Shown: piece by piece, positions 2,474 through 53,766 of the stretch
Position numbering within the stretch: the first letter of the stretch is position 1
How the letters are laid out: every line of letters starts with the position of its first letter
Source of the DNA: Escherichia coli
GTDB lineage: Bacteria > Pseudomonadota > Gammaproteobacteria > Enterobacterales > Enterobacteriaceae
Assembly: GCF_022846255.1 (NCBI RefSeq)
Contig: NZ_AP025682.1
Length of the DNA stretch: 64,000 nucleotides
Direction: 5' to 3' (one strand)
Notes under the pieces: generated by a model
Database searches by the model: none
Told to the model about the DNA's origin: nothing
The model's input: the letters and a program-made list of their open reading frames with translations, nothing else
Translations under genes and position numbers: made by a program

Positions 2474-3157
2474 TTATGCGAGAGCCAATTTCTGGCGCGC
2501 GTATTGTAGCGCTTTTTCAATCACTTGCTCAATGCTTAAGGTGGTGGAATCCAACACTAAAGCATCGGCTGCCGGAACCAGTGGCGCTACCGCTCGGTTA
2601 CGATCGCGGTCGTCGCGTTCTTTGATCTCGGCCAAAAGGCGCTCAAAGTTAACACTAAAGCCCTTCTCCTGCAACTGTAGCATGCGGCGATGCGCACGTT
2701 CTTCCGAGGAGGCGTCAAGGAAAATTTTCACTGGCGCATCAGGGAATACCACCGTTCCCATGTCGCGGCCATCGGCAATCAGGCCTGGTAATTCGCGAAA
2801 CGCGCGTTGGCGACGCAATAATGCTTCACGAACGCGTGGGAATGCCGCGACTTGTGAAGCAGCATTCGCCACTTCCTGAGTACGAATTTCGCCGCTGACA
2901 TCTTCCCCTTCGAGGATCACTTCCAGATTACCGTTGGTTGACACAAAACGTACATCCAGATGGGATGCCAGCGGCACCAGCGCATCTTCCGATGCAACAT
3001 CAACATGGTGATGTAATGCCGCTAGTGCCAGTACGCGATAAATTGCACCCGAATCCAGCAGATGCCATTGCAACGCTTCCGCCATAGCCTTACACAAGGT
3101 GCCTTTCCCTGCACCGCTTGGGCCATCAATGGTAATAACCGGGGCAATTGCCGTCAT
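2474..3157 (-). CDS. cmk: Cytidylate kinase
   Basis: 227-aa ORF, P-loop GPSGAGKGT near N-terminus; conserved position upstream of rpsA. Confidence 0.95.
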
Positions 3158-35102: not shown

Positions 35103-36152
35103 TTTGAAAACTGCCTGTACGGCAGTGAACAGCGCCCGCTTTTTTACCGCGTCAGCGCAGCGTTTCTAAGCTGCCTGTACGGCAGTGAACTCCCTGATTC
35201 AGTTGCGCTCCCCGACGAGCTGTTTCTAAGCTGCCTGTACGGCAGTGAACCGTTGGCGTTTCGCGGCAACAGGTTTTTCAATTTTCTAAGCTGCCTGTAC
35301 GGCAGTGAACGTAGTTTTGATTCCAGCGATAACTGCCTATTTATTTCTAAGCTGCCTGTACGGCAGTGAACGTAGTTTTGATTCCAGCGATAACTGCCTA
35401 TTTATTTCTAAGCTGCCTGTACGGCAGTGAACGATCAGGCCCGGCTTTCCCCACACGTTCGTATTTTCTAAGCTGCCTGTACGGCAGTGAACCGCCTGCC
35501 ATTCAACCTGCAAATAGTTTTCGATTTCTAAGCTGCCTGTACGGCAGTGAACGAACTGTGGCACGAGGTTGCAGGCGTAAGACTTTTCTAAGCTGCCTGT
35601 ACGGCAGTGAACGCCATCTTTGAATATAACGCCCCGATTGTGATTTTCTAAGCTGCCTGTACGGCAGTGAACCCCTACCGTTTTAATAAATGGGATTTGC
35701 ATTATTTCTAAGCTGCCTGTACGGCAGTGAACGCTGAGGTGTTTACAATGCGTGCCGTGCTGGTTTTCTAAGCTGCCTGTACGGCAGTGAACTCTGTTTT
35801 TCGTCAGCAGGATTAAACCAGGCATTTCTAAGCTGCCTGTACGGCAGTGAACTCTCATCAATTACGGGTTCGTTGGCTGGATCTTTTCTAAGCTGCCTGT
35901 ATGGCAGTGAACGTCTTCTGCGCATCCGTACCACTCACCAATGATTTCTAAGCTGCCTGTATGGCAGTGAACTTAATCGGTAACGTTGCTCTAATTCCCC
36001 CTCTTTTCTAAGCTGCCTGTATGGCAGTGAACCCAGCGAGAATTGAGGCTGTTTGCCGTGTGCTTTTCTAAGCTGCCTGTATGGCAGTGAACATAAACGC
36101 GCGCAGGTTGTTGAGGTGCTCGAGTTTCTAAGCTGCCTGTATGGCAGTGAAC
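35103..36152 (-). CRISPR. Type I-F CRISPR array A: 18 repeats, 17 spacers (16 unique)
   Basis: 28-bp repeat (RNA sense on minus strand GTTCACTGCCGTACAGGCAGCTTAGAAA) at 60-61 bp period with 32-33 bp spacers; degenerate terminal repeat at 35103..35130; five repeats at 35885..36152 carry a loop variant. Confidence 0.97.
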
Positions 36153-36495: not shown

Positions 36496-36583
36496 GGTGA
36501 GGTGTCCGAGTGGCTGAAGGAGCACGCCTGGAAAGTGTGTATACGGCAACGTATCCGGGGTTCGAATCCCCGCCTCACCGCCA
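36496..36583 (+). tRNA. serW: tRNA-Ser (anticodon GGA)
   Basis: 88-nt sequence GGTGAGGTGTCCGAGTGGCTGAAGG...TTCGAATCCCCGCCTCACCGCCA with long variable arm and encoded CCA. Confidence 0.93.
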
Positions 36584-36704: not shown

Positions 36705-37718
36705 CTAGTCGTAGGATACGGCAAATATGGCTTTGCTTTGGACTTCTCCAGGCTGTAGTGCTTCCTCCTTCACGCGGACATATTTCGCGGTAATCGGGAA
36801 GGTGTACTGATTCTCAATGGCCGCCATTTTAGTTAGTTTGTTCATCAGAGTATCACCCAGCTTTAACGGTGTTGTTGCGTTACCATTATAAATCTGGAAC
36901 CCAACCCCCTTAGCACCATTAAGCGATGTGTTTTTCAGAATGGTTCCACTATCATCCCATTCACCGCGCGCAACTTTAAAAGTCACTGGATTAGTCGTGA
37001 CGTTATAAACACTGTCACAATTTAAAACCAGATCTATAGAACCTGATTTCGTGTTATTGGCAGATTGCATCTCACTTACCGTTGTTTCTGGCATTCTTAT
37101 TTCGTAAATCGGTTGCGAAAAACTACAGGTTGTGGGTTTGTGTTTGATGCTAAATTCTATATTCTGAGTGTAAGAAACATCACTATTTAGTCGCCCAGTA
37201 ACCCAACATAAAAGCCATGATATGATATTATTATTGCAAGAGTTATCTGTTAGTATGCTAATAGCGGGGCGCGGGATGGTTATCTTGTCGATATTGGTGG
37301 TTATAGTATGGTCTACTTTACTCGTTGGCCCAACATATTCTGCCTTAAGAGTGAACGGTTTGGTATTTATCACATCCTGAGTGTTATATTCTTTTGGAGA
37401 AGCACCCAAGGAGTCAGTTCCAGTAGAAACAGGAAAACTACTACTCTCAAGGTTAAATTTCATAAAAATTGATTTCCCCGAATCCGACTCTCTAAGTTCA
37501 ACGATATAATCTTTTAACGGTGTTGCATAATACATTTTATCGCTTGCTGCATTACATGTGAACGTATCGACTAAGTTTGTATGAATTACAGCCGTTACCG
37601 TATCTTGTGCCATATCCAGTTCTATCGTTTGGCTTGCTGTTGTATTAGGCCCCAAGGTACATTTAGCCTGCCCCAAAAAAGGCAAAGCCAGTAAAAACAA
37701 AAACCAATATTTCTTCAT
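36705..37718 (-). CDS. Fimbrial adhesin / minor tip subunit (chaperone-usher pilus)
   Basis: ORF 36705..37739 (TTG-initiated in the track); likely ATG start at MKKYWFLFLLALPFLGQA signal peptide; last gene of the operon; AT-rich codon usage. Confidence 0.6.
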   Translation of the reverse strand: MKKYWFLFLLALPFLGQAKCTLGPNTTASQTIELDMAQDTVTAVIHTNLVDTFTCNAASDKMYYATPLKDYIVELRESDSGKSIFMKFNLESSSFPVSTGTDSLGASPKEYNTQDVINTKPFTLKAEYVGPTSKVDHTITTNIDKITIPRPAISILTDNSCNNNIISWLLCWVTGRLNSDVSYTQNIEFSIKHKPTTCSFSQPIYEIRMPETTVSEMQSANNTKSGSIDLVLNCDSVYNVTTNPVTFKVARGEWDDSGTILKNTSLNGAKGVGFQIYNGNATTPLKLGDTLMNKLTKMAAIENQYTFPITAKYVRVKEEALQPGEVQSKAIFAVSYD

Positions 37719-37729
37719 AAACAAATCCT

Positions 37730-40222
37730 TTAACGACAAATATAAACTTTATTCTCATCAATAACGTTATCAAAGGTAATAGTGCAGAATTGTTCCTGCT
37801 GTTTATTAACCGAGACGCGAATCGACGCGGGAACATCATTGGTGCGAATAAATATCCGACTTCCCTGTCCTACTAAGCCCACATTATTGCCACTTTCATC
37901 TTCAACCTCATAACCAAACGGCAACGGAGAGCCATCAGGTCGTTGGGAGATGAAATACCAGGGCTTGCGTTTATCAGTCTCAAACTGCGTCATCACTACC
38001 GCACCACGATAAGGAACGGTGTTTTTACGGTTACCCAGTAGCGCCACATCGCTTTTACTGTCGGCAATATCCAACATCAACGTATTTTCACGATACGGCG
38101 TCAGGTTGTCATAAATAGCGTAGCCTCTGCTATCCGTGGTCAAGTAACGATATCCCTGCACCGCAGCCCCCTCCAGCCCAGGTGCTTTGACAATGGCAAA
38201 CGTATCGGAAAGTCTGGGAGCCAGTGCCACCCCGTCCGACCACGCGACGAAACCGCCTTGAATATTACCGCTAACCTGTTGATATCTTTTCGACTGGCTA
38301 TAGCTGCCACCAATAGTCGCCAATGGCGCACGCCAGGTCAGGTTTCCACCTGCTGTTGTTTCGCTGCCCTGGTGTTGATGGCTCAAGTTTGCCCCGTAGC
38401 TGAACTGATCGCGGCTCCCCGCTACACCGCTGAGGCTGGTATTATTCGACCGATAGCCGTCTTTATCAAAAGTGGTCGAGTTAGAAACAAATAAATCTCG
38501 TCGTTTTTCAGTGATTCCATCGCCCCACGAGAAGGGAATTGAGAAATATAAGTTAATGCGTCTATCTTCGCGGTTATCTTCGTCGTAGGTCTGGCTAACA
38601 GACAAGGTATAACTAAGGCGTTCCCAGGAGTTCGAATAGCTGAGTTGATAATCTTTCCCTGTCCCGCTGCGTTCCCAATAATCCCGCCATTGACCGCTGA
38701 CCGACAGATATCCCCAATTTTCCGGTAATGACTGGTTTATATTTACAGAAAAGCTGTTCTTACGACCAAAATCGTACTGATAATAGTCGGCGATATCATA
38801 AACTGAGTCATCTTCTCGATTATAACTTTTCCTGTTATTTGCCCTCACGTGATCGTTAAAAGTACGATAATCTCGAGAAGAATAACGCCAGGCCGCCAGC
38901 GAAAATTGCGTTCCACTTTGAGAGAGATATTTGTTCCACGCAATCTGATAACTTTGACCATTAAACACATCACCGTTATCTTGTTCACTGTGGGAATGGG
39001 TAAAATCAACAGATACCGCACCAATCGGTGTATTCCATCCCGTGCCGAGAACAAACGATGAGTAATTATCAGACAACTGCGTGCCAGCATAGAGAGTCAG
39101 CAAATTATTAAGGCCATACTGATAGCTTCCCTGAATAAAATCTGACTGATCGCTGGCTCCCTCAATACGGCTACGTCCGACAGCAAATTCATATTTCGAA
39201 ACGCCCGGTTGCAACATATTTGGTACCGATGAATAAGGTACACGATAACGCGACACCGAACCGTCAGCTTCTTTAACGGTAACTTCCAGATCGGCACCAC
39301 CACCTGCAAGTTGCAAATCATCAATGGCGAATGGACCTGGCGGAACTTCTTTCTGGTAAACCACAAAGCCATTTTGTTCGATAGTGACAAGTGCGTTACT
39401 TTGGGCAACACCACGCACCACAGGCGTAAAATTCTGTTTAGAGTTCGGCAACATCTGCATATCGCGCCAAAGGCGTACACCGCGAAAACGCACGGAGTCA
39501 AAAACATCAGAACCGGTATACATTTCACCAGCACGCAATGTGCCAAGAATATGTGGAATTCCGCGCTCCAGATATAACGTGTTACTCTTCCATTTACCGC
39601 TGTTATCGTCACTTTTCGTATAATTGGCATTTGAATGCAACTGCCAGCCCAGCAGATTCAAACCACTATTCAGATTTAAATAGCTACTTTTATTATCTCC
39701 TCCGTGCTTATAATTACTGTAATACTGACTGGCATAATAAGAAGTATATAATGCGTTAATCCCACGATCCCATGCCTCAGGTGGAACATATCCGCGTTCA
39801 TACTCAACAACATAGGCCTGGGGTACACTCAACTTCAGGTTAAAATGCCCAATATCATAGTCAACGCTACCTCCCTGTACTGCATCCCGAAGAGGTACGC
39901 ATTCTACGCCTTTATCAATATTAATTCCTTCAGTGAGGATACCTATTTGCTTTAACTGCTCCCAAGATAAACATGTCGCATCCGGATCATCTTTAATGTC
40001 GACATTATAGTGTCCGCGCCACTGATTATTCAGGTAAACATCCATATCATAGATACCTGGCATCGGCTTATCACTATCAATATGATAGTCAGAAATTTTT
40101 TCCCCATTTAATCCGCCAATCATAAAATGGGTGTCAAATGTTTCATCTTCCGCCCATGCAAGCGACGTTGCCAACACCGACAGGATAGCCAGCGTAATAG
40201 AATTAAGTTTAGACATAATCAA
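37730..40222 (-). CDS. Fimbrial outer-membrane usher protein
   Basis: 830-aa ORF, size and composition typical of FimD/PapC ushers, between chaperone and adhesin. Confidence 0.85.
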   Translation of the reverse strand: MIMSKLNSITLAILSVLATSLAWAEDETFDTHFMIGGLNGEKISDYHIDSDKPMPGIYDMDVYLNNQWRGHYNVDIKDDPDATCLSWEQLKQIGILTEGINIDKGVECVPLRDAVQGGSVDYDIGHFNLKLSVPQAYVVEYERGYVPPEAWDRGINALYTSYYASQYYSNYKHGGDNKSSYLNLNSGLNLLGWQLHSNANYTKSDDNSGKWKSNTLYLERGIPHILGTLRAGEMYTGSDVFDSVRFRGVRLWRDMQMLPNSKQNFTPVVRGVAQSNALVTIEQNGFVVYQKEVPPGPFAIDDLQLAGGGADLEVTVKEADGSVSRYRVPYSSVPNMLQPGVSKYEFAVGRSRIEGASDQSDFIQGSYQYGLNNLLTLYAGTQLSDNYSSFVLGTGWNTPIGAVSVDFTHSHSEQDNGDVFNGQSYQIAWNKYLSQSGTQFSLAAWRYSSRDYRTFNDHVRANNRKSYNREDDSVYDIADYYQYDFGRKNSFSVNINQSLPENWGYLSVSGQWRDYWERSGTGKDYQLSYSNSWERLSYTLSVSQTYDEDNREDRRINLYFSIPFSWGDGITEKRRDLFVSNSTTFDKDGYRSNNTSLSGVAGSRDQFSYGANLSHQHQGSETTAGGNLTWRAPLATIGGSYSQSKRYQQVSGNIQGGFVAWSDGVALAPRLSDTFAIVKAPGLEGAAVQGYRYLTTDSRGYAIYDNLTPYRENTLMLDIADSKSDVALLGNRKNTVPYRGAVVMTQFETDKRKPWYFISQRPDGSPLPFGYEVEDESGNNVGLVGQGSRIFIRTNDVPASIRVSVNKQQEQFCTITFDNVIDENKVYICR

Positions 40223-40230
40223 TCCCTGAT

Positions 40231-40911
40231 CTATTTGACGGTTTTTACTTTTTCACTCAAATAGTTCCCATGGTCATCAATCAGCGTAATTGTATATTGA
40301 TTGATGGCTAAGGCTGTGGTGATAGTCTTATCTGACCAGGGGGCTAATAACAACGTTTCGTGATTTATTTTTCCACTTCCCATCAACTCAGGAATAGTTA
40401 TCCAGTTTGCGGAGTTGTTTTTGATATTAATACCACCATTGGCATGCTTAATGCTCAGACGACGAAAACTTTCTTTATCTACGCCAGTAAGTCCCTCTGG
40501 GCGGTAGATAAATTTAATACGATTCTGCATGGCGAATTTTATGCCATTCTTATCTTCTAATTCGGGGCAATTAGGTGGGATGTCTAGCACATTAAGGAAG
40601 AATAGGCTTTCGCGATCTTTTGGTAGTGTATTCGCCAATTTTTTGATTTTGAGTTGTTGCCCTTCCCCCCCTTTTACGTGAGCGACCGGTGGCGTCAACA
40701 CAAACGGAACATGAATTTTTTCTGGGGGTAGACTGGTATCGCCATCATCAATCCATGACTGAACCAGGGCGCTACGATTACCTTCATTCATTAACTGAAC
40801 GGTAATCTCTTTTTTCTTTTCTGGATAAATAACACGAGTGCCGTAGATATAGACACCACTCCACGCAGGCGTGACTATGCCGGCCAGCAAGAAGGCTATT
40901 AATTTTTTCAT
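40231..40911 (-). CDS. Periplasmic pilus chaperone (PapD/FimC-like)
   Basis: 226-aa ORF with signal peptide MKKLIAFLLAGIVTPAWSG and chaperone-like N-terminal region. Confidence 0.8.
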   Translation of the reverse strand: MKKLIAFLLAGIVTPAWSGVYIYGTRVIYPEKKKEITVQLMNEGNRSALVQSWIDDGDTSLPPEKIHVPFVLTPPVAHVKGGEGQQLKIKKLANTLPKDRESLFFLNVLDIPPNCPELEDKNGIKFAMQNRIKFIYRPEGLTGVDKESFRRLSIKHANGGINIKNNSANWITIPELMGSGKINHETLLLAPWSDKTITTALAINQYTITLIDDHGNYLSEKVKTVK

Positions 40912-40964
40912 TAAACAATCCTTGTTTGAGAAATCGGCGACCGAAGCCGCCGATAAACACGATA

Positions 40965-41513
40965 TTAATCTGTCACGACAGTCATTGTCAGAGCAGAGTT
41001 AACCGGGCCAGCAGTCACCGCATCACCTGATTGCGCGTATTTCGCACTGAAATTTAGTGTATATTCATTAGAGCTGTTTTTTTCTAACTCAATACTTTTA
41101 TCACCGTCAATCTGTTGAGATTGCCCATCTGCACTCTCATAGTAGACAGCAAAACCAGCACCATTTGGGTTTGCCACAGTATTAATGGTGATATCGCTAC
41201 GATTTGCATCAAACTGACTTCTGGAAAACGTAATTCTGGGAGTCTCATCTCCTGTACATTTGACCGTCAGCGGTACAGTTGTTTTATTTGAATAACCATC
41301 ATAAATATAACCAGCGCTCTTACCATCAAATTGATCAGCACCAATATCGTTCATAGCAATAGTAGCCTGGCTATTTCCGATAAATTGACAAGTAGTTCCA
41401 ACCACATTACCGGTAATAACTAACTCACCCTGTTCACTCCCCTCCTCTGCAAAAGCCCCTGCACTCATAAAAAGAGAAGATAATACTGCAACTGCAATAA
41501 TTGAACGTTTCAT
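40965..41513 (-). CDS. Major fimbrial subunit
   Basis: 182-aa ORF with signal peptide and Thr/Ser/Gly-rich pilin-like composition; first gene of the operon, preceded by about 380 bp of AT-rich DNA. Confidence 0.75.
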   Translation of the reverse strand: MKRSIIAVAVLSSLFMSAGAFAEEGSEQGELVITGNVVGTTCQFIGNSQATIAMNDIGADQFDGKSAGYIYDGYSNKTTVPLTVKCTGDETPRITFSRSQFDANRSDITINTVANPNGAGFAVYYESADGQSQQIDGDKSIELEKNSSNEYTLNFSAKYAQSGDAVTAGPVNSALTMTVVTD

Positions 41514-41892: not shown

Positions 41893-42447
41893 TCAAAACC
41901 AGGGAATAGTGGCGGTTGCGCTTAATCCGTAACTACTAAATTCCCCTTTAACCGGTTCAGTAAGCAAATCACCATGACGGATAAACAGCTTGAACTGCTG
42001 CTGACTCGACAAACTATTCATATTAAGAAAGGGTAAATCGGTCCGCTGTTCAGCCTGCGTCGCCAGTCGCTCAATCGCCTGTTCTTCAGTTAGCCAGCCT
42101 TTTTTCACTGAACGCCTTAACAGACGCTGAGGGTTACTTTTTACCTGTACACGACTTACGACTCGCCAGCCTTTAATTTCAGGTACTAGCGTGACAGGCG
42201 AACATTGGCAGTAATCAGTAAGCCCTTTACGCCACGTAGAGGCTTCAAGTTCTTGCAATGCGGGGGCACTGCCGTGCAAGCGTAAACGCGCTCCCGGCGT
42301 AACATTCACGTCCGGGAAACTCACGCCGATATCACCTTGCCCTCTTGCACCTAATGCCCGATGCAATTTGGCAAATAACGCCGCCATCAACATTTCGCTC
42401 GAAAATTCAGGATCTGGCAGAACGCGGATCTCAAGGTAGTGATCCAT
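41893..42447 (-). CDS. cas6f: Type I-F CRISPR endoribonuclease Cas6f (Csy4)
   Basis: ORF 41893..42489; start placed at MDHYLEIRVLPDPEF; last gene of cas operon. Confidence 0.9.
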   Translation of the reverse strand: MDHYLEIRVLPDPEFSSEMLMAALFAKLHRALGARGQGDIGVSFPDVNVTPGARLRLHGSAPALQELEASTWRKGLTDYCQCSPVTLVPEIKGWRVVSRVQVKSNPQRLLRRSVKKGWLTEEQAIERLATQAEQRTDLPFLNMNSLSSQQQFKLFIRHGDLLTEPVKGEFSSYGLSATATIPWF

Positions 42448-42457
42448 TGGCAGCTCC

Positions 42458-43459
42458 TTATTCCGATTTCTCACCAAAGACACCGCCACGGATCAGCACA
42501 GCCATCACGTAGCGCTGCTGATCAACGTCTGGTTTCATCCCTTTAGTCACCCAATTGTCCAGTAAGGTATAAAAGTCGAGTTTTTCTTTCGGTTGACGGC
42601 AGGCCACACCGCGACTGGTTACAGAACCGTAAGGTTCCACGGCTATAGCCCCCAATTCATCAACCTTTGGATGCCAGGTATCAATGGTACGTAAAGCATT
42701 GCCAATCTTCTGAGAGTGAATACCGGCAATGCCAGCCACCTGGTATAACACGCGACTTTTACTACTGTTGCTGTCGAGTACCAGCTCCTGCGACGGAAAA
42801 ACTTCTTGCCCGGCACCAAGACGAACCTGCGCTTCAACGGTAAGCATCACCCACTCTTTTGCGCTTAATCCTTGCTCTATAATGGCCGCCAGCTGCGTGA
42901 CCGCTGCCTGTCCCTGGTCAAATTGACGTAAAGAGAAGTCATGGCTGTTAAAAGTCCAGGAAGTGTCGTTAGCAGTAACTTTCACCTGGATCTGCTCAGC
43001 ACCAATGCGGTTGCGCCACAGAAAACGACCATTTGCCAGATTCAGCGCATAGCGAAGCGCCAGCTCTTTAAAGCCATGTTCGCTGATGTAACCTTCAATG
43101 ACCCCGGAAAGCGCCTCCTGGTAAGCCATATCATTACATACTGACGGTGTGGATAAATTACCCAGCACACGCAGCGTAAACACCACCTTTAACGTATCCG
43201 CATCTACCGGAAGCGAAGCCACATCCACCCGTTGCAGGTTAGCTTTTTGGATTTCAGCATCCAGTTTTGTGGAGTCACTGGTAATCGTATTTTTCAAGCG
43301 ATTAGAGATAGTTCCGCGAACCGCTTTCTCCTGAATCTCAATGGGTTGCCATACATTTCCTTGCCAGTTACCTGCGTACATTACCGCGTCAGATGTTGCC
43401 AGTTTGCGCTCAAATGCCAGTACCGATGCCGTTTTTATTACTACAGGAGCCTTTGCCAT
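42458..43459 (-). CDS. cas7f: Type I-F Cascade backbone subunit Cas7f (Csy3)
   Basis: 333-aa [36 protein letters not shown]..., position in operon. Confidence 0.9.
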
Positions 43460-43469
43460 AATTATGTCC

Positions 43470-44393
43470 TTATTCTAAATCGTCATATTCATTAAAAGTA
43501 AAATCATCACCAGCTGGCATTGCCGAGCAATAGTAGCCAGTGTCCGTTGTGCGGTAACGCCACATCAGCGGTTGCAAGTCAGTTATGCGATGTAATCCGC
43601 GCCATTCGCCGATGCCATATACCGCTTCGGCAAAAGCAAATGGCGTCACGGTGTCGCGCGCATTTTCAACTTCACCGGGTGCGTAAACAGGAGAAATGCG
43701 TTGGTAGCCACACATTAACGGTACCAGGAAACCAGGCATTGGCTTCGGCTGATATGTCCATTTTGCGCTGTTGTCTTCTGCCGGAGATTCGGCCTGATAT
43801 TTAACGGCAGCAAAATCAAGCCAGGCATCCAGCAATGAGATGTCGGGATGTTGTTGGTGATGTTCAGCCAGCCATTCACTGCGATCGTAAAGCGCATAGC
43901 CAGGCATTAAACGCCAGATGATTTTACGCAGTTGCTTTTCATCTTCAGGCGCATGAAAAAGCTGTGGTTCGCGCATGTCAACAATGCTGCCGCCCGCCAG
44001 TTTGTGGCTCTGGCAGAGCATTTTCAGATGGTCACACAGAGCTTTTCTGCCATATTCACCATTGGTGATTTCCCCTTCACATTCAATGAGCAAAGATACC
44101 GTCAGATGCATACGGCCCTCTTCATTGAACGAAGCGGTTTTACCTTCTCTGGTTAGTGGGTTACGGGTGAGAGCAAACTGAAAATACCGCCCAGAGCTAT
44201 ATGCCTGAATATGTTGTTCATGGCTAACTACCGCGCAACCGTCAAAACTTACGCCAAAATCATCCGCCACTTTGCGAGAAAGCGCATGAACATAGCCGAG
44301 AAAATGGGTCATCGCCGGGAATCCCCAGGTCAACCCGGAGACGGCGTTAGCGTTTTCGATACGTATATGGGGTAACAAGAGCAGATAACTCAT
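43470..44393 (-). CDS. cas5f: Type I-F Cascade subunit Cas5f (Csy2)
   Basis: 307-aa ORF, operon position between csy1 and csy3, overlaps csy1 stop by 4 bp. Confidence 0.88.
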
Positions 44394-45697
44394 TTCAGCG
44401 CCTCCTGCAAAACAGCTTCCATTTCACGCATCCGTTGAGCGAACAGAGACTGGCTGCGCCATTCTCTTTGCTCGACAGCGCCCACGTCGAAACTGGATTT
44501 TTTCAGGCGATAGTTGAGCCAGCGCGCAAAATCATCGGCCACCGCCCCCTGCCAGTCGTTTTTCTCCCGCTCCAGTTTGAAAACCTCATCGGACAGGCTT
44601 CGCCACGGATCCAGCCAAAGCTGCTGATGGCGAGGTAAATCTTGCGATTGCGCTGACCATCCCTGCCATTTTTCTTGCTGAAAAGCGGATGCCTGCATGA
44701 ACAGCAGATCGATCAACTCATCAATATATTTCGCCCGCGCAGTTCGGATATGAACATTATTTATGTCAACCTTCAACAGGTAAGTCATCCGGGCGATAAT
44801 GCCCGAAGCCGCCCTATTGAAATCGCCGCGTAAGGCAAAAATACTGAGCATGTTTTGTGGTGCGCGATCCAGCGTCGCCCAGGTAGGCGGCATTGACGGC
44901 AACAGCCAGACGCGCCCCCCACGCACACTATTGAGCAATGAAATATTTTGCGGTTTTGTGCCTCCGAAATGCATTTCAGCAAGATTCGGGAAACGAATAT
45001 CTGGCTGTGAGTGCCATTTACCTGCTTTGTGCGCTTCGCGAATGGCTTTCGATTCCTCACTAAAGCGCACGGCGGTTAGCTTTTCATACATCGCCTGCGC
45101 CAGTGAACTGGAAAACAGTGGGCATAAGAGGTGATAACCATCCGCAACAGGGAAATAGATTTGTTTTGCCAGTTTATGGCTGGCAGGCCGTCCAGTTGTC
45201 CATGCCTGGCTAAACCCAGCTACCCACTGCTCCAGTTGCGCTTTATCCTCTGCAAACGTACTTAATGCCTGATAATCACCACGCTTCAGGCTGGCAAGCA
45301 GTGAATCTCCGTTCACATCAGTTTGTAGCAACTTTGCGACGTCAAGTGCAGCGGCGTTACCAATCGCGTCAGTAGCGACATTCGCCAACGATGCCGTGTT
45401 TAAATAGCTTTCGTTAGCGGAGGTTTCCAGATAAAAGCTACTGGCTTTAGAATCACCATGACTGAATTTAGCGCCATGAGTGACTAATTTGATTTGCCCG
45501 GCACGCTTTGCCGCATCCGTTAACCAGTGACGAGGCAGGTAGCGTGCCTCGAGTTCCTGCCGCTCCTGAGCGATGACGCTGGCATCCTCGCCCTGTTCCA
45601 GTCGCTTTGTTGCTTCTTTTTCAAAGGCCTCGACTTTGGGTTGCCTTCGCGAAGCGATATAGTCAGTGATAAATTGTATTAGCGCCGTTTTTTCCAT
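44390..45697 (-). CDS. cas8f: Type I-F Cascade large subunit Cas8f (Csy1)
   Basis: 435-aa ORF, AAGGAG RBS upstream of ATG, first gene of csy cluster. Confidence 0.88.
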   Translation of the reverse strand: MEKTALIQFITDYIASRRQPKVEAFEKEATKRLEQGEDASVIAQERQELEARYLPRHWLTDAAKRAGQIKLVTHGAKFSHGDSKASSFYLETSANESYLNTASLANVATDAIGNAAALDVAKLLQTDVNGDSLLASLKRGDYQALSTFAEDKAQLEQWVAGFSQAWTTGRPASHKLAKQIYFPVADGYHLLCPLFSSSLAQAMYEKLTAVRFSEESKAIREAHKAGKWHSQPDIRFPNLAEMHFGGTKPQNISLLNSVRGGRVWLLPSMPPTWATLDRAPQNMLSIFALRGDFNRAASGIIARMTYLLKVDINNVHIRTARAKYIDELIDLLFMQASAFQQEKWQGWSAQSQDLPRHQQLWLDPWRSLSDEVFKLEREKNDWQGAVADDFARWLNYRLKKSSFDVGAVEQREWRSQSLFAQRMREMEAVLQEALK

Positions 45698-46024: not shown

Positions 46025-49000
46025 TCACGGGGCGCGGTACACACCTAACCAGGGGTGATAACGCCAGTCATCGACCACATCTTCTTCACTGACGGGTACT
46101 CTCACCTCAGCAAACTTTTCCCCAACGCTTGCTATCTCACAACCTTGCTTATCAGCTAAATTCAACAAAACGTGTTGGTAATCCATCACGCCCCAGCAAG
46201 CGACACCGCTGGCGCATCTCACCTCTTCTCGCCTGAAATTCCCTTGCGCTTTACGCTCGTTGTCGCCCGTACGGGAATAGAAACGCGCTTCGCTTTCTTC
46301 ATCATCCATATGCAGAAAAAATACCGCCTCCGGCAAAGGGGAATAACGAAATGGCGTCTGGCGCTGTATCCAGCCGTTCCAGCTTAGCGGTGCACGCCAC
46401 CATTGCGCCGCCACCACATGTTTGCTTTTACTGCTCATCAATTCGGCGGATAAACGACTATGTTCTAGCTCCGCCAGTTTGTTGGCATTATTGGCAGACA
46501 GGATCCGCGGCAAGGCGTTAATCGTCCGGTAGTCCGCGATCGGAATCAGTTCGCAAATATCGTGGCTATTCAGCAAGTGTTCTTTTGTTTCGAAACCAGG
46601 CTTACAAAATGCGGGGGCTTTTTTCTGCAATGATTTGATATTGCTACGCAAAATAACCAGATTCTCACTGGTCGGCACATTTCTACGGTGGCGCTGAATA
46701 CGTCCGGCAAATTGAATTATCGAACGCATGGAGCTTGGTTCGATAATTCCCCAATCCGCATCCCAGTCACGCCCCACTTCTATAACCGATGTCCCCAACA
46801 CCACAAACAGATGGTGCGATTCCGGACGGTTATGTAAGGCATCTGCGATATCTTCGTTGTTCCAGAAATCGAGTTCGTTATGACGGGTAAAAGCGCGGTC
46901 CAGTCGCTTCTCAATATCTGAACGCACCGCCAGCGGGTGTCGGGAGTGGTAAACACAATAATGAATACAAACATTTTCTGGTGAAGGAATGGCAATCAGG
47001 GCTTTGGTCACTGCAACCAGTGGATTGATATTCGCGAAGCGCACCAGGCCCAGCGAAACGGTTTTACCGCTTTCGTGTAGCTGGCGATGCGCCTGATGCA
47101 ACTTCAGCATTTGCGTATGCACCGTCTGGGCCACACTTTCGGTAACATCCTGGATTGCAACTGATGCAGATGAAATCGAAGCAACACGCCCGAAATGCAG
47201 CCGCTCTTTTTCAGCCAGCATTACCGCCCGCCTGGCAACAAATTTTGTATGCGCATCGCGAAAGGCCGCTCCATCGCTAATTTGCGTGGCATCAGCATCG
47301 TTTTCGTCAAACCAGGCACAGCAAATATTGACGGGCCTGCCGTTGGTACCACAAGACGCCTGCCACATTTTACGCCCGGCAAGATAAGCCGCGAACAGCG
47401 CCTGAATCAGGCCTGGCGGAAGCGTCGCCGAAGAGAGTAACACCCGCGTTCCCAGCATCCCGGCCCAGTTCATCAAACGACATACCGCATGAAGATCAGC
47501 AATATCAAAGTCGTCGGGTTCGTCGAGCACTAAATCGCTGGTTAACAGACGCAACATCGCCGGAAGCTGTTTCCCGCCACGCACACCCTCGGTCGCGGAA
47601 ATAAGATGATCAATTGTCGCGACCAGAATCGGCGCGCTCACTAACGCCTTAAGTTTGCTGTCATCCTTCAACCATTTTTCCAGCGCCCCGGTATGCAGGC
47701 TGCCTTCGTACTTAACGAACTGTTGCTCCTCTGCCGGCGACTCTTGCGAGGCACTTCCACAATCATTGTCTATTTTTTCCTGCTGCCAGAGCTGTTTAAC
47801 TGCCGCCGAACCAATTAATACCGCCAGCTCATCCTCACCGAGTCCAAGTCGACTACGCAGAGCATCGCCGGTTTGCAAAGTCAGCGTACGCAATCCCAGC
47901 GCGACGGTAAAACGGCACCCTTCCCGCTCATCGGCAAGCGCATACATAATGCGGGCGTTCGCAAAGGTTTTACCGCACCCCGTCGAGGCCATATTAACGC
48001 CGAAAAATCCCTCCTCCCGGCTTCGTTCACGTAACGCTCGCGCCACATCCGAGGCTTTATCCTGCCAGCGATATTTCGCATCTGTAGCTCGCTGGCTAAA
48101 ACCTTTATGTCGGGCAATTGCCGGAAGAGAAGCCCGTGTGCGCATCAGCTGCCGCCCAAGCAAAAACGCATGATGTGCGACGCCGACCAGGTGCTCGTCC
48201 ACCCGTTGTTTGAGTGCGCCACTTTGCCTATCGCTATTTGCCCAGACGATATAATCCGGCTCCTGCCATTTTTGCTGCGCATCGCTTGAGGAATAGTAAT
48301 GATCGGCAAGCATCAGGCAAAAACGCGCCATATGTGAGGGGAACAACTGTTCCATCAGCCCGTATGTCTTTAAACCGAGCGCGTTACTTGCCCGGCGGGA
48401 AATCTGATGTGCTTTTTCTCGCCAGCTAGCACTCTGAAGCGGTGTTCCAGCCGGAAATTGCCAGACGTGCGCAAAATCCTGTTGTAACCAGTCATCTCTG
48501 CGGTGGTTAACGGCATTCCAGTCAGCATTAAGTTGCCTTTCCAGCCAACTTTCACACCCTTTGCAAGATTGTTCCGGTTGTGGCGAAAGATTCTCCGGAA
48601 TTCGATGATGGGAAAGGATCAGCCAACCTACCGTTTTGGCTAGCGGTTGCAGCGAAGTAAATGGGCTATCTGAAAATTGAGGCGTGTCTTTTAGCAGGCG
48701 TTCCAGAATCGCAGATTCATCATCTGCCGTAAGTTCGCCAAGCTTCGCCAGCCACACATCGTCGGGCCGATCACCGACAAACGCCTGAAAGAGCCGCAGT
48801 GAGATCCATTCATGTCGGTATGGTTGATAACTGCGGGCATTCTTTTGGGTCAGGCTTTGCTGAAAGCTGCGTCCGGATTTTCCAAAATCATGAAATAACC
48901 CGGCGATGGCTGCCAGCAGCGCAATGCTTTCCGCACATTGCCAGCGGTTTTCTTCCTTGTTCACCAGGCTGGTTTGCGTTGTGCGATTTGTGGGAACGCG

Positions 49001-49258
49001 CCCCTGAGCATTAAAACGACGAATATTACCCACAATCCACATCAACTCAATTTGTCCATTCTTCTTTAGCCAGTGACATGCCACTGCGGTATTTCGCCTG
49101 GCAGTTTTGCGCAGTAAACGGCGGAGTGTATTAACGCCTTCCAGAGTAATCACTGTTTGCCATGCGGCATCACCTGTACGTTCAGCAAACTGATCAATAA
49201 TACGGCAGCTTTCCACGCGGGCGTTTTTTGTACAGCGCGAGATAATCAGAACATTCAT
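46025..49258 (-). CDS. cas3: Type I-F Cas2-Cas3 fusion (Cas2 domain + HD nuclease + SF2 helicase)
   Basis: 1077-aa ORF; N-terminal Cas2-like region; HD motif LLAAIAGLFHDFGK; overlaps cas1 stop by 4 bp. Confidence 0.92.
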   Translation of the reverse strand: MNVLIISRCTKNARVESCRIIDQFAERTGDAAWQTVITLEGVNTLRRLLRKTARRNTAVACHWLKKNGQIELMWIVGNIRRFNAQGRVPTNRTTQTSLVNKEENRWQCAESIALLAAIAGLFHDFGKSGRSFQQSLTQKNARSYQPYRHEWISLRLFQAFVGDRPDDVWLAKLGELTADDESAILERLLKDTPQFSDSPFTSLQPLAKTVGWLILSHHRIPENLSPQPEQSCKGCESWLERQLNADWNAVNHRRDDWLQQDFAHVWQFPAGTPLQSASWREKAHQISRRASNALGLKTYGLMEQLFPSHMARFCLMLADHYYSSSDAQQKWQEPDYIVWANSDRQSGALKQRVDEHLVGVAHHAFLLGRQLMRTRASLPAIARHKGFSQRATDAKYRWQDKASDVARALRERSREEGFFGVNMASTGCGKTFANARIMYALADEREGCRFTVALGLRTLTLQTGDALRSRLGLGEDELAVLIGSAAVKQLWQQEKIDNDCGSASQESPAEEQQFVKYEGSLHTGALEKWLKDDSKLKALVSAPILVATIDHLISATEGVRGGKQLPAMLRLLTSDLVLDEPDDFDIADLHAVCRLMNWAGMLGTRVLLSSATLPPGLIQALFAAYLAGRKMWQASCGTNGRPVNICCAWFDENDADATQISDGAAFRDAHTKFVARRAVMLAEKERLHFGRVASISSASVAIQDVTESVAQTVHTQMLKLHQAHRQLHESGKTVSLGLVRFANINPLVAVTKALIAIPSPENVCIHYCVYHSRHPLAVRSDIEKRLDRAFTRHNELDFWNNEDIADALHNRPESHHLFVVLGTSVIEVGRDWDADWGIIEPSSMRSIIQFAGRIQRHRRNVPTSENLVILRSNIKSLQKKAPAFCKPGFETKEHLLNSHDICELIPIADYRTINALPRILSANNANKLAELEHSRLSAELMSSKSKHVVAAQWWRAPLSWNGWIQRQTPFRYSPLPEAVFFLHMDDEESEARFYSRTGDNERKAQGNFRREEVRCASGVACWGVMDYQHVLLNLADKQGCEIASVGEKFAEVRVPVSEEDVVDDWRYHPWLGVYRAP

Positions 49259-50244
49259 TGATCAGCCTTAGCCAGTGCCTGGGCAGTTTCCTGCAAAGAG
49301 GTGATCATGACATCCAGCGCATCCGTTTGTTGAAAGATATTGATGCAGCGTAGACGAAACTCCTGGGCATCTTCACCTGCCATCGCGGCGATAAATGCTT
49401 GCGGCATCACAAGGGCATCTTTAATCAGATCGGCAAGGTCAAAAACCAGCCCGCCGCGACGTGTTTTACCGTGCATTACTGCTAAACCGTGCGGGATCCC
49501 GGTTACCCACGCCGCCACTGCTGCCAGTCCATAAGCCAGATAATTCCCTTGATCGAGGAAGCGGTTGGCCATATCAATACCACCGCCCCGTTTTGCGCGA
49601 GTGAAATCGCCATACCCCACTGTTTGACTGACCATTTTGTATAACGCTTTAGTCAATTTGGCCTCTACGAGCATAAGCTGCGTATGGTTTTCTGCCGCGT
49701 CTATTTCTTCACGAGTACGATTCAGGAGGGTATGCAGCGCATTAACATCAGGTTGAAATGCGTGTTCACGCTGCATTTTCGAGCTGGACCAGTGCTTATC
49801 GATATGTGTCAGGCGGATTAACTGAAAACGTTTCGCGGCGGCAAGTCGTTTATCTTCAGCAAACCAAAAAGAAACCCACTGCTGGAGATACTCTGTAGGG
49901 CGATATTCACTTTGTGGGCTGAGCCAGGAGACATCAACATCCACTTCATTTGCCGAATACAGCGGCGTGCCATCCGTACCACAAAAGCCCACCATCACCC
50001 CGGCATGAGCAAATTCACGCATCGCCGCCTGAGTAACGGAAGTTCCCATTCCCAACATCAATGCCGTGGTATTCGCAATGGGGATATTCCAGTAGTACGA
50101 CTCTTTACCTTCGCTGGTGACATACTCCACCCGCCCACCATTCACCTGTACCCGGCATTTTTCCAGATAATAAATATTGGCGCGTTTGGAGTGGAGAATG
50201 GTTTTGAGATCGGAAGGCGTGAGGTAATTCGAAGACATAAACAC
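49255..50244 (-). CDS. cas1: Type I-F CRISPR integrase Cas1
   Basis: 329-aa ORF upstream of cas2-3, first gene of cas operon. Confidence 0.9.
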   Translation of the reverse strand: MFMSSNYLTPSDLKTILHSKRANIYYLEKCRVQVNGGRVEYVTSEGKESYYWNIPIANTTALMLGMGTSVTQAAMREFAHAGVMVGFCGTDGTPLYSANEVDVDVSWLSPQSEYRPTEYLQQWVSFWFAEDKRLAAAKRFQLIRLTHIDKHWSSSKMQREHAFQPDVNALHTLLNRTREEIDAAENHTQLMLVEAKLTKALYKMVSQTVGYGDFTRAKRGGGIDMANRFLDQGNYLAYGLAAVAAWVTGIPHGLAVMHGKTRRGGLVFDLADLIKDALVMPQAFIAAMAGEDAQEFRLRCINIFQQTDALDVMITSLQETAQALAKADQ

Positions 50245-50400: not shown

Positions 50401-51268
50401 ATTATCGTATTGTGAAACTACCTGTACGGCAGTGAACCGCGTAGAGCTGCTGCGCAAACTCGACACTCATTTCTAAGCTGCCTGTACGGCAGTGAACCCT
50501 CGTTCATCAAGGTGCTCAAAGCTTGACATTTTCTAAGCTGCCTGTACGGCAGTGAACGCCAAGAACGCTGTTACCGCTTCCCTGTGCGCTTTCTAAGCTG
50601 TCTGTACGGCAGTGAACCCAGATTGCCGAAAACATCGCCTTTGATGAACTTTCTAAGCTGCCTGTACGGCAGTGAACGGGCGCGGTGTCGTCCAGGATTT
50701 GGAGGCAACTTTCTAAGCTGCCTGTACGGCAGTGAACAACAGGTCGTCCAGCGCATCCCACGGATCCGGTTTCTAAGCTGCCTGTACGGCAGTGAACATC
50801 GCGCACACGCAGTCTTACATTTGCCACCATTTCTAAGCTGCCTGTACGGCAGTGAACGAGTGATTATTATGGCCCAATCGGACGATGACTTTCTAAGCTG
50901 CCTGTACGGCAGTGAACCTCCACCCGTGGTAAGCAGAAAGGGCCGTAACTTTCTAAGCTGCCTGTACGGCAGTGAACTGATCTGTTGCGATACTGACAGT
51001 ATCGTTAGCTTTCTAAGCTGCCTGTACGGCAGTGAACTGTTTTTTTGACGTGTAAACCGGGCGGTTTTTTTTCTAAGCTGCCTGTACGGCAGTGAACATC
51101 TCCGTATTTACTGTCCTCCCTGCTATCCATTTCTAAGCTGCCTGTACGGCAGTGAACTGCCAGTTTCGAAAACGTGCAGCAAATGCAGTTTTCTAAGCTG
51201 CCTGTACGGCAGTGAACTACCTTAATTTGAAATGAACCTTTGCCGCATATTTCTAAGCTGCCTGTACG
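50401..51268 (-). CRISPR. Type I-F CRISPR array B: 15 repeats, 14 spacers
   Basis: same 28-bp repeat at exact 60-bp period, 32-bp spacers; degenerate terminal repeat at 50401..50428 next to cas1; repeat at 50581 has a stem substitution. Confidence 0.97.
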
Positions 51269-51431
51269 GCAGTGAACTCAAATACTACACGTTTAGCTCG
51301 TTGTTGATAAAGAAAAATCATCTCATTTTCCTGCTGCCACCCTTTTTTATTCTTACCTTCCAGCACCATTAATTATCAACAACTTACCTTCACCTCCAAA
51401 AATAGGGTTTTCACCGTTCCCCCCTACAAAC

Positions 51432-51465
51432 AAAAAGTCCGTAACCTCTTTCGAGATTACGGACT
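51432..51465 (-). terminator. Rho-independent terminator after clpA
   Basis: gtccgtaa...ttacggac hairpin followed on minus strand by TTTTGTTT. Confidence 0.65.
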
Positions 51466-51489
51466 TCACCAACCTACCTAACAATTAGA

Positions 51490-53766
51490 TTAATGCGCTG
51501 CTTCCGCCTTGTGCTTTTGTGCACTCTGGAATCCGTAAGTCAGCTCATTTTTATCTTTATCCAGCGCAACCGTCACCTGACCGCCGTCCACCAGCGAACC
51601 AAACAACAGTTCGTTGGCGAGCGGTTTTTTCAGGTTGTCCTGGATGACACGCGCCATCGGACGTGCGCCCATTGCCCGGTCGTAACCTTTCTCGGCCAGC
51701 CAGTTACGCGCTTCCTGGCTCACTTCCAGAGAAACACCTTTCTGATCCAGCTGAACCTGCAACTCGACGATGAATTTATCCACTACCTGATGGATCACGT
51801 CGGTGGAGAGATGATCGAACCAGATAATGTTGTCGAGACGGTTACGAAACTCCGGCGTAAAGATCTTCTTGATCTCTTCCATCGCATCAGTGCTGTTGTC
51901 CTGGTGGATAAGACCAATCGATTTACGCTCAGTTTCTCGTACCCCAGCGTTGGTGGTCATCACCAATACCACGTTACGGAAGTCCGCTTTGCGTCCGTTG
52001 TTATCGGTCAGCGTACCGTTGTCCATCACCTGCAACAGAATATTGAACACGTCCGGATGCGCTTTCTCGATTTCGTCCAGCAGCAGTACCGCGTGCGGAT
52101 GCTTGATGACCGCATCGGTCAGCAGCCCCCCCTGATCAAAACCAACGTATCCCGGAGGCGCACCAATCAGACGGCTGACGGTATGGCGTTCCATATACTC
52201 GGACATATCAAAGCGCAGAAGCTCAATGCCCAAAGCTTTCGAAAGCTGTACCGTCACCTCTGTTTTCCCGACCCCGGTAGGACCGGCAAACAGGAACGAA
52301 CCGACCGGTTTATGTTCGTGACCTAAACCTGCACGCGCCATCTTAATGGCTTCAGTCAGCGCCTCAATGGCTTTATCCTGACCGAAGACCAGCATTTTCA
52401 GGCGATCGCCGAGGTTTTTCAGGGTATCGCGGTCACTCTGCGAAACACTCTTCTCTGGAATGCGCGCAATACGGGCCACCACGGACTCAATATCCGCCAC
52501 ATTAACGGTTTTCTTGCGTTTGCTTACCGGCATCAGGCGTGCGCGAGCGCCCGCTTCGTCGATAACGTCAATGGCTTTATCCGGCAGATGACGATCGTTA
52601 ATGTATTTCACCGCCAGCTCTACCGCTGCACGCACCGCTTTTGCGGTATAACGCACGTCGTGGTGCGCTTCATACTTCGGTTTCAGGCCATTGATGATCT
52701 GTACGGTTTCTTCTATCGACGGTTCAGTAATATCAATTTTCTGGAAGCGACGCGCCAGAGCACGGTCTTTCTCGAAAATGTTGCTGAACTCCTGATAGGT
52801 TGTCGAACCAATTACGCGGATTTTACCGCTGGAGAGCAACGGTTTAATCAGGTTAGCCGCATCGACCTGGCCACCAGACGCTGCACCCGCACCGATAATG
52901 GTGTGGATCTCATCAATAAACAGGATGCTGTTAGTGTCCTGCTCCAACTGCTTGAGCAACGCTTTAAAACGTTTTTCAAAGTCGCCGCGATATTTTGTGC
53001 CCGCTAACAGAGAACCGATATCGAGAGAGTAAATCGTACAGTCAGCCATCACTTCCGGCACATCGCCCTGAACAATTCGCCAGGCAAGCCCCTCCGCAAT
53101 CGCGGTTTTACCGACACCAGACTCCCCCACCAGCAGCGGGTTGTTTTTACGGCGACGGCAGAGAACCTGAATAGCACGCTCCAGCTCCTTCTCACGACCA
53201 ATCAGTGGGTCGATTCCGCCCACTCGCGCAAGCTGATTCAGGTTCGTCGTGAAATTCTCCATACGTTCCTCCCCACCAGCTTGTTCTTCGCTGTTTGGCT
53301 GGCTGCCAGGATCAGAAGACTGTGTCGGCTCGTCTTTACGCGTGCCATGAGAGATAAAGTTCACCACATCGAGACGGCTGACTTCATGTTTGCGCAACAG
53401 ATATGCCGCCTGCGACTCCTGTTCGCTAAAGATAGCGACCAGAACGTTTGCACCGGTAACCTCATTGCGACCGGAGGACTGGACATGGAAGACCGCACGT
53501 TGCAGTACACGCTGAAAACTCAGCGTCGGCTGTGTGTCGCGCTCCTCTTCACTGGCAGGCAGAACGGGTGTGGTTTGTTCAATAAAGGCTTCCAGTTCCT
53601 GACGGAGCGCAACCAAATCCACAGAACACGCTTCCAGCGCCTCCCGGGCAGATGGGTTACTGAGCAGCGCCAGTAACAAGTGCTCGACGGTCATAAACTC
53701 ATGACGGTGCTCGCGCGCTCTGGCGAAAGCCATATTTAAACTGAGTTCCAGTTCTTGATTGAGCAT
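51490..53766 (-). CDS. clpA: ATP-dependent Clp protease ATP-binding subunit ClpA
   Basis: ORF 51490..53781; start at [23 protein letters not shown] (758 aa); two AAA+ modules. Confidence 0.96.

Follow-up and report, generated by a model that had tools for sequence, protein, structure and literature searches.

The CRISPR array beside clpA in this Escherichia coli locus contains one internal repeat with a base change in the stem of the hairpin that Cas6f recognizes, and this raises the question of whether the crRNAs that depend on this repeat are still matured normally. The substitution had been picked out from the letters of the DNA, with the suggestion that it breaks one stem pair and could reduce processing of the adjacent crRNA. 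We found the structural side of this reading to be correct, while its functional side is plausible when judged from folding models and from what is known of related enzymes.

Array B and its divergent repeat

The window (the whole 64-kb stretch of DNA that was analyzed) carries two CRISPR arrays, A and B, which share the repeat consensus GTTCACTGCCGTACAGGCAGCTTAGAAA and both lie on the minus strand (Table 1). With up to 3 mismatches allowed, the 28-nt consensus had 32 matches in the window and 0 in 100 shuffles, and array B, with its regular spacing and 14 different spacers of 32 nt, is far beyond chance. The two arrays occupy the known E. coli type I-F locus, which runs from infA/tRNA-Ser to clpA with the cas genes in between, and the site of array B is that of the CRISPR array annotated next to clpA in E. 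coli genomes. The flanking genes were 97.2 to 97.9% identical to those of E. coli SZQ1, and the host is E. coli-like. The leader region at 51278-51489 had only 86% identity to SZQ1, compared to 97 to 98% for the flanking genes.

The system shares its features with type I-F as represented by Rfam CRISPR-DR4 (RF01317), P. aeruginosa PA14, Pectobacterium atrosepticum, and E. coli I-F, i.e., a 28-nt repeat with 32-nt spacers, a 5-bp stem and 5-nt loop at repeat positions 6 to 20, the 8-nt 5' handle CUUAGAAA, a CC PAM, and an adjacent cas1/cas2-3/csy1-3/cas6f operon. All six I-F cas genes were full length, agreed in length with their annotated E. coli counterparts, and matched their NCBIfam equivalogs far above the cut-offs; csy1, csy2, and csy3 encode Csy/Cascade subunits. 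The endoribonuclease Cas6f aligned end to end with the P. aeruginosa Csy4 structures (E 2e-48) and keeps the catalytic H29, R102/Q104 (here R99/Q101), and the basic helix of Csy4.

Table 1. Features of the type I-F locus, with positions in the window
Feature	Position	Strand	Remarks
CRISPR array A, infA/tRNA-Ser side	35103..36152	-	18 repeats, same family, same I-F system
cas6f (csy4)	41893..42447	-	184 aa; NCBIfam TIGR02563, E 3.6e-54
csy3	42458-43459	-	NCBIfam TIGR02566
csy2	43470-44393	-	NCBIfam TIGR02565
csy1	44390-45697	-	NCBIfam TIGR02564
cas2-3f	46025-49258	-	NCBIfam TIGR02562
cas1f	49255-50238	-	NCBIfam TIGR03637
CRISPR array B, clpA side	50410..51277	-	15 repeats of 28 nt, 14 spacers of 32 nt, period 60
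Degenerate terminal (trailer-end) repeat	50410..50437	-	GTTCACTGCCGTACAGGTAGTTTCACAA; leader-distal end; Rfam 22 bits, below gathering threshold
Spacer 12	50558..50589	-	crRNA needs a cut in the variant repeat for its 8-nt 5' handle
Variant repeat, no. 12 of 15 from leader	50590..50617	-	GTTCACTGCCGTACAGaCAGCTTAGAAA; G17A; C9·A17 mismatch in the Cas6f stem
Spacer 11	50618..50649	-	variant repeat would form the 3' hairpin handle of its crRNA
Leader of array B	51278..51433	-	AT-rich; between clpA terminator-like hairpin (51467-51434) and repeat 1

Two other features of the locus were noted. A chaperone-usher fimbrial operon (36705-41513; genes for a YehD-like subunit, a chaperone, an 830-aa usher, and another ORF of 344 aa) lies inside the I-F locus, between tRNA-Ser (36496-36583) and cas6f, an interval of only about 110 bp in the six E. 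coli I-F loci that were compared. Within array A, spacers 14 and 13 (35311-35343 and 35372-35404) are identical, each with 33 nt in place of 32 (TAAATAGGCAGTTATCGCTGGAATCAAAACTAC), and represent a spacer-repeat unit that has been duplicated.

Array B is transcribed on the minus strand, because the Rfam match is on that strand, the degenerate repeat lies at 50410-50437, and the leader is found beside the clpA terminator. Judged by its spacers, the array looks live. Spacer 1 matched Escherichia phage CharmingMan over 29 of 30 aligned bases, and spacer 11 matched a gene of the DUF3164 family at 32/32 positions, with the I-F PAM (in guide sense, CC 5' of the protospacer). This protospacer lies in the Mu-like prophage of two E. 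coli genomes (in E. coli A35, GG follows it on the strand shown), and the DUF3164 protein of the prophage is widespread in Escherichia assemblies (562 blocks in the look-up). For spacer 12, no match was found in E. coli genomes, phages, plasmids, metagenome contigs, or viral contigs. Two ORFs called mechanically across the array, at 50516-50830 (minus strand, 104 aa) and 50584-51048 (plus strand, 154 aa), are built from repeat-spacer units and almost certainly do not represent genes.

Array B is confined to one lineage. None of its 14 spacers (50438-51249) occurred in any array of the 5,426 complete E. coli genomes searched, and metagenome scans for spacer 11-N28-spacer 12, and for spacer 12 alone, found nothing. 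Logan contigs carrying an identical Cas1 end within the array, before repeat 12. Outside the window, this lineage is known only from the assembly GCA_005387665.1 and a few sequencing runs with identical Cas1. The runs DRR322657, DRR322658, SRR19238557, SRR33442678, and ERR2357297 share both the Cas1 and the trailer spacers. The assembly differed from the window at 1 of 8,984 bases (in clpA, at 51553), and its array, including the variant repeat, was identical.

In RNA sense, the variant repeat reads GUUCACUGCCGUACAGaCAGCUUAGAAA, with A17 in place of the type I-F consensus G, whereas the other 13 full repeats of array B are consensus. The original prediction had described it as the fourth repeat, at 50581-50608. 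The repeat does exist, but it lies 9 nt further to the right, where the quoted variant tttctaagctgTctgtacggcagtgaac has its one exact occurrence in the window (50590-50617); the interval first assigned to it covers the final 9 nt of a spacer followed by 19 nt from the start of the repeat, with the changed base inside. This base is a plus-strand T at 50601 (C-to-T), at which the other 13 full-consensus repeats have C. The ordinal "fourth" holds only when repeats are counted from the left on the plus strand and the degenerate one is included; in the order of minus-strand transcription, the repeat is number 12 of 15. The variant is present as a single copy, and repeats 1 to 11 upstream of it are all consensus. 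The change of GGCAG to GACAG in RNA sense was borne out by the sequence and, with stem positions 6-10 and 16-20 taken from Rfam CRISPR-DR4, one pair of the 5-bp stem, C9-G17, is lost, as had been proposed.

Variant repeats in related arrays

We scanned one genome per species for G17A in otherwise canonical I-F repeats. The substitution was found in 16 other species representatives, always once per array. Of these arrays, 13 have more than three repeats, and in 8 of them the substitution sits among the final three, against an expectation of 3.05 (P about 0.002). Serratia sp. AKBS12 carried the identical variant 28-mer at position 9 of 11. When E. coli-type I-F arrays were surveyed (14 arrays from seven genomes, this window included), 8/14 had at least one non-consensus internal repeat, and 14 of the 156 internal repeats were non-consensus. 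The clpA-side arrays of E. coli SZQ1, A1, and CEA224S share a penultimate repeat, GTTCACTGCCGTACAGGCcGtTTAGAAA (A19C/C21T), in which A19C breaks the U7-A19 stem pair. The kind of event seen in array B, in which an old CRISPR repeat acquires a point mutation, is already known and common in the arrays examined.

It has been reported that small differences occur in the repeats at the trailer end of CRISPR arrays, with the last repeat deviating the most (PMC3497052). Repeat 12 resembles such degeneration in being a single-copy variant that is located in the older part of the array (12/15) and absent from the newer repeats. It differs in that it is not terminal, that one base only is changed, and that this base belongs to a stem pair, whereas terminal repeats degenerate in the 3' tail.

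The identical G17A 28-mer was also present in 30 of the 5,426 complete E. coli genomes, as repeat 1 of a cas-less orphan array beside clpA. In these 30 genomes, GACAG is found in the first repeat of the orphan array as well as in its terminal one (3001-3028 and 3121-3148 in the extracted loci L008/L009), and the middle repeat is consensus. One orphan spacer matched the cas2-3 of the window (47955-47986) with 0 mismatches and the other matched cas1 (50110-50141) with 3 mismatches, both with a CC PAM (L008/L009, 3001-3140). These matches fit the anti-cas orphan CRISPR4 arrays that were published for E. coli without cas genes (Almendros et al. 2016; summarized in PMC8616872). The orphan arrays thus share with array B the site by clpA and the repeat family, and their first repeat has the identical G17A, but they lack cas genes, consist of three repeats, and carry spacers that target cas2-3 and cas1, whereas array B has 15 repeats, spacers directed at phages, and a complete cas operon.

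Stability of the hairpin and processing by Cas6f

We then compared the variant and wild-type hairpins. The lost pair, C9-G17, is the second from the loop in the hairpin CUGCC-GUACA-GGCAG. Against Rfam CRISPR-DR4 (gathering score 35), the variant repeat scored 40.4 bits compared to 50.1 for the 13 wild-type repeats, a cost of 9.7 bits; it is still above the gathering score, while the complete 5-bp stem (6-10 with 16-20), present in the other 13 full repeats, is absent from it. The predicted energy of the canonical stem rose from -8.6 kcal/mol in the wild type to -1.4 kcal/mol in the variant, and the predicted stem-pair probability of the isolated repeat was about 1.0 for the wild type versus 0.15 for the variant. 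In the minimum-free-energy fold of the variant repeat, the hairpin was gone. Within its 92-nt native spacer context, the variant had a predicted stem-pair probability of 0.00, versus 0.66 to 0.96 when A17 was reverted to G. These models predict that the free hairpin is strongly destabilized in the variant repeat, and four of its five stem pairs stay intact, among them the lower three, with C6-G20 and U7-A19 beside the cut site.

Folding is a weak guide to processing at this locus. The wild-type repeats 2, 8, 9, and 10 also had stem probabilities of ≤0.10 in their local context, and equilibrium folding alone is therefore without predictive value for processing. Local-context folding was a weak discriminator, and folding of the whole 1-kb pre-crRNA was uninformative, with repeats pairing with each other.

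Cas6f makes major-groove contacts with the repeat stem-loop and is highly sensitive to helical geometry (PMC5965381). Cleavage takes place at the 3' base of the stem, after which the enzyme remains on the hairpin and serves as the nucleation point of the Csy complex (PMC5965381, PMC3497052, PMC3902920), and Csy4 processing in vivo has been described as responding in nearly all-or-none fashion to the structural context of the RNA (bioRxiv 10.1101/2020.11.15.384107). For the Cas6b of M. maripaludis, the single substitution G16C likewise removes a G-C pair from the hairpin of the repeat, and cleavage fell (PMC3479195); unlike repeat 12, which is a natural variant, that substrate was engineered and used in vitro, and it has a weak hairpin and is cut by an enzyme of another Cas6 subfamily. 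The reviews and analogous cases that the literature search covered gave no Cas6f or P. aeruginosa Csy4 data on a C9·A17 substrate.

Our preferred reading, which we hold with reasonable though not full confidence, is that G17A is a point mutation of an ordinary kind, located in a repeat that is old and internal, and that it probably lowers Cas6f processing of the spacer-11 and spacer-12 crRNAs. [quoted passage not shown] Loss of C9-G17 would weaken both binding and cleavage of repeat 12. A single adjacent crRNA had been thought to be affected, but two depend on the variant repeat: one cut in repeat 12 would supply both the 3' hairpin of the spacer-11 crRNA and the 8-nt 5' handle of the spacer-12 crRNA, so that a weaker substrate would lower the two flanking crRNAs together. 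The spacer-11 crRNA, whose target is a Mu-like phage, would be left without a proper 3' hairpin and Cas6f cap, the spacer-12 crRNA would miss its 5' handle, and the remaining twelve crRNAs would be unaffected. Reduced processing of these two crRNAs is, from the models and analogies above, probable. A test by equal abundance of the flanking crRNAs would be confounded, because in a related I-F variant system crRNA abundance differs widely from spacer to spacer even where the repeats are identical (PMC4605320), and because four wild-type repeats of array B have a low predicted hairpin occupancy in their spacer context.

The main alternative, possible but in our estimate unlikely, is that the variant is functionally silent. 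Csy4 reads the two pairs beside the cut site base-specifically and binds with picomolar affinity. An enzyme of this kind could clamp a weakened stem, and Cas6f might tolerate the C·A mismatch, with the binding energy that the intact lower stem and the basic helix provide folding the hairpin on the enzyme, and both crRNAs maturing normally. Consistent with this, four of five pairs are kept, including the two at the cut site; the score of 40.4 bits exceeds the gathering score; the four wild-type repeats with low predicted hairpin occupancy are presumably processed; and the variant is retained in two assemblies and has appeared repeatedly across many species. On the other hand, the predicted destabilization amounts to about 7 kcal/mol, and recognition by Cas6f is, according to the reviews cited above, highly sensitive to helical geometry. 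In addition, the stem CUGCC/GGCAG was invariant in all I-F arrays seen here while the loop varied, and the enrichment of G17A at the trailer end fits relaxed selection on old repeats and not full neutrality everywhere.

Origin of the substitution and its meaning

Whenever a spacer is acquired, the first repeat is copied together with any mutation in it. Because G17A is present as a single copy with eleven consensus repeats upstream, we infer that it arose in place, once repeat 12 was no longer leader-proximal. Array A offers a different picture: its leader-proximal repeats 1 to 5 (35885-36152) all carry a G11A loop variant (GTTCACTGCCaTACAGG...), and repeats 6 to 17 are consensus. The block suggests that the first repeat of array A was mutated and then copied through four later acquisitions; if G11A was propagated in this way, the loop variant would be compatible with adaptation. 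We also considered whether the C-to-T change in array B falls in a Dcm deamination hotspot (CCWGG), and this was rejected by inspection since the site is outside a CCWGG context.

For the G17A variant, the persistence in two assemblies shows that it is under no strong counter-selection. Most likely, it is neutral to slightly harmful and has been kept by drift, as is usual toward the trailer end.

A selective origin appears far less probable. The variant could have been favored by silencing spacer 11 in a host carrying the Mu-like prophage, as an escape from CRISPR autoimmunity, and the perfect match of spacer 11 with its I-F PAM in the prophage of two E. coli genomes, the wide distribution of the DUF3164 protein in Escherichia assemblies, and the fact that the variant repeat is exactly the one supplying the 3' hairpin of the spacer-11 crRNA would all agree with such a history. 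We nevertheless consider it very improbable, given that no protospacer for any spacer was found within the 64-kb window, that single-repeat variants are common without any such explanation, and that the rest of the locus shows no degradation. A broader version, in which G17A is a recurrent, selectable off-switch that silences single crRNAs without deletion of the spacer (here spacer 11, and also at the first repeats of the orphan arrays and in the 16 species), seems to us just as improbable.

Even less credible is the import of the variant by recombination from an array that already had G17A, e.g., the orphan array of cas-less E. coli. In 30 of 5,426 complete genomes, that array has the exact variant 28-mer as its repeat 1, and the flank that follows it there weakly resembles spacer 12. 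This likeness between spacer 12 and the orphan spacer is at chance level, being reached by 2.3% of shuffles, and the idea that spacer 12 had diverged from the orphan anti-cas3 spacer was rejected on that ground. Moreover, no complete E. coli genome has any array-B spacer, and a C-to-T transition is the simplest independent event, one that recurred in 16 unrelated species. Finally, a sequencing or assembly error is similarly improbable: arrays are repetitive and short-read contigs end within array B, but the identical base in a second, near-identical assembly, which differs elsewhere at one clpA base, makes an error unlikely.

Point mutation in place, followed by drift, is the reading that we prefer. 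If reduced processing holds, the strain keeps two spacers, one of them directed against a Mu-like phage, that would give weaker or no immunity. The variant repeat is also a natural substrate for gauging how far Cas6f tolerates imperfection of the stem. As a real yet ordinary variant in a standard I-F array, it has little importance beyond annotation, and it may serve as a small reminder that functional immunity is overstated by spacer content.
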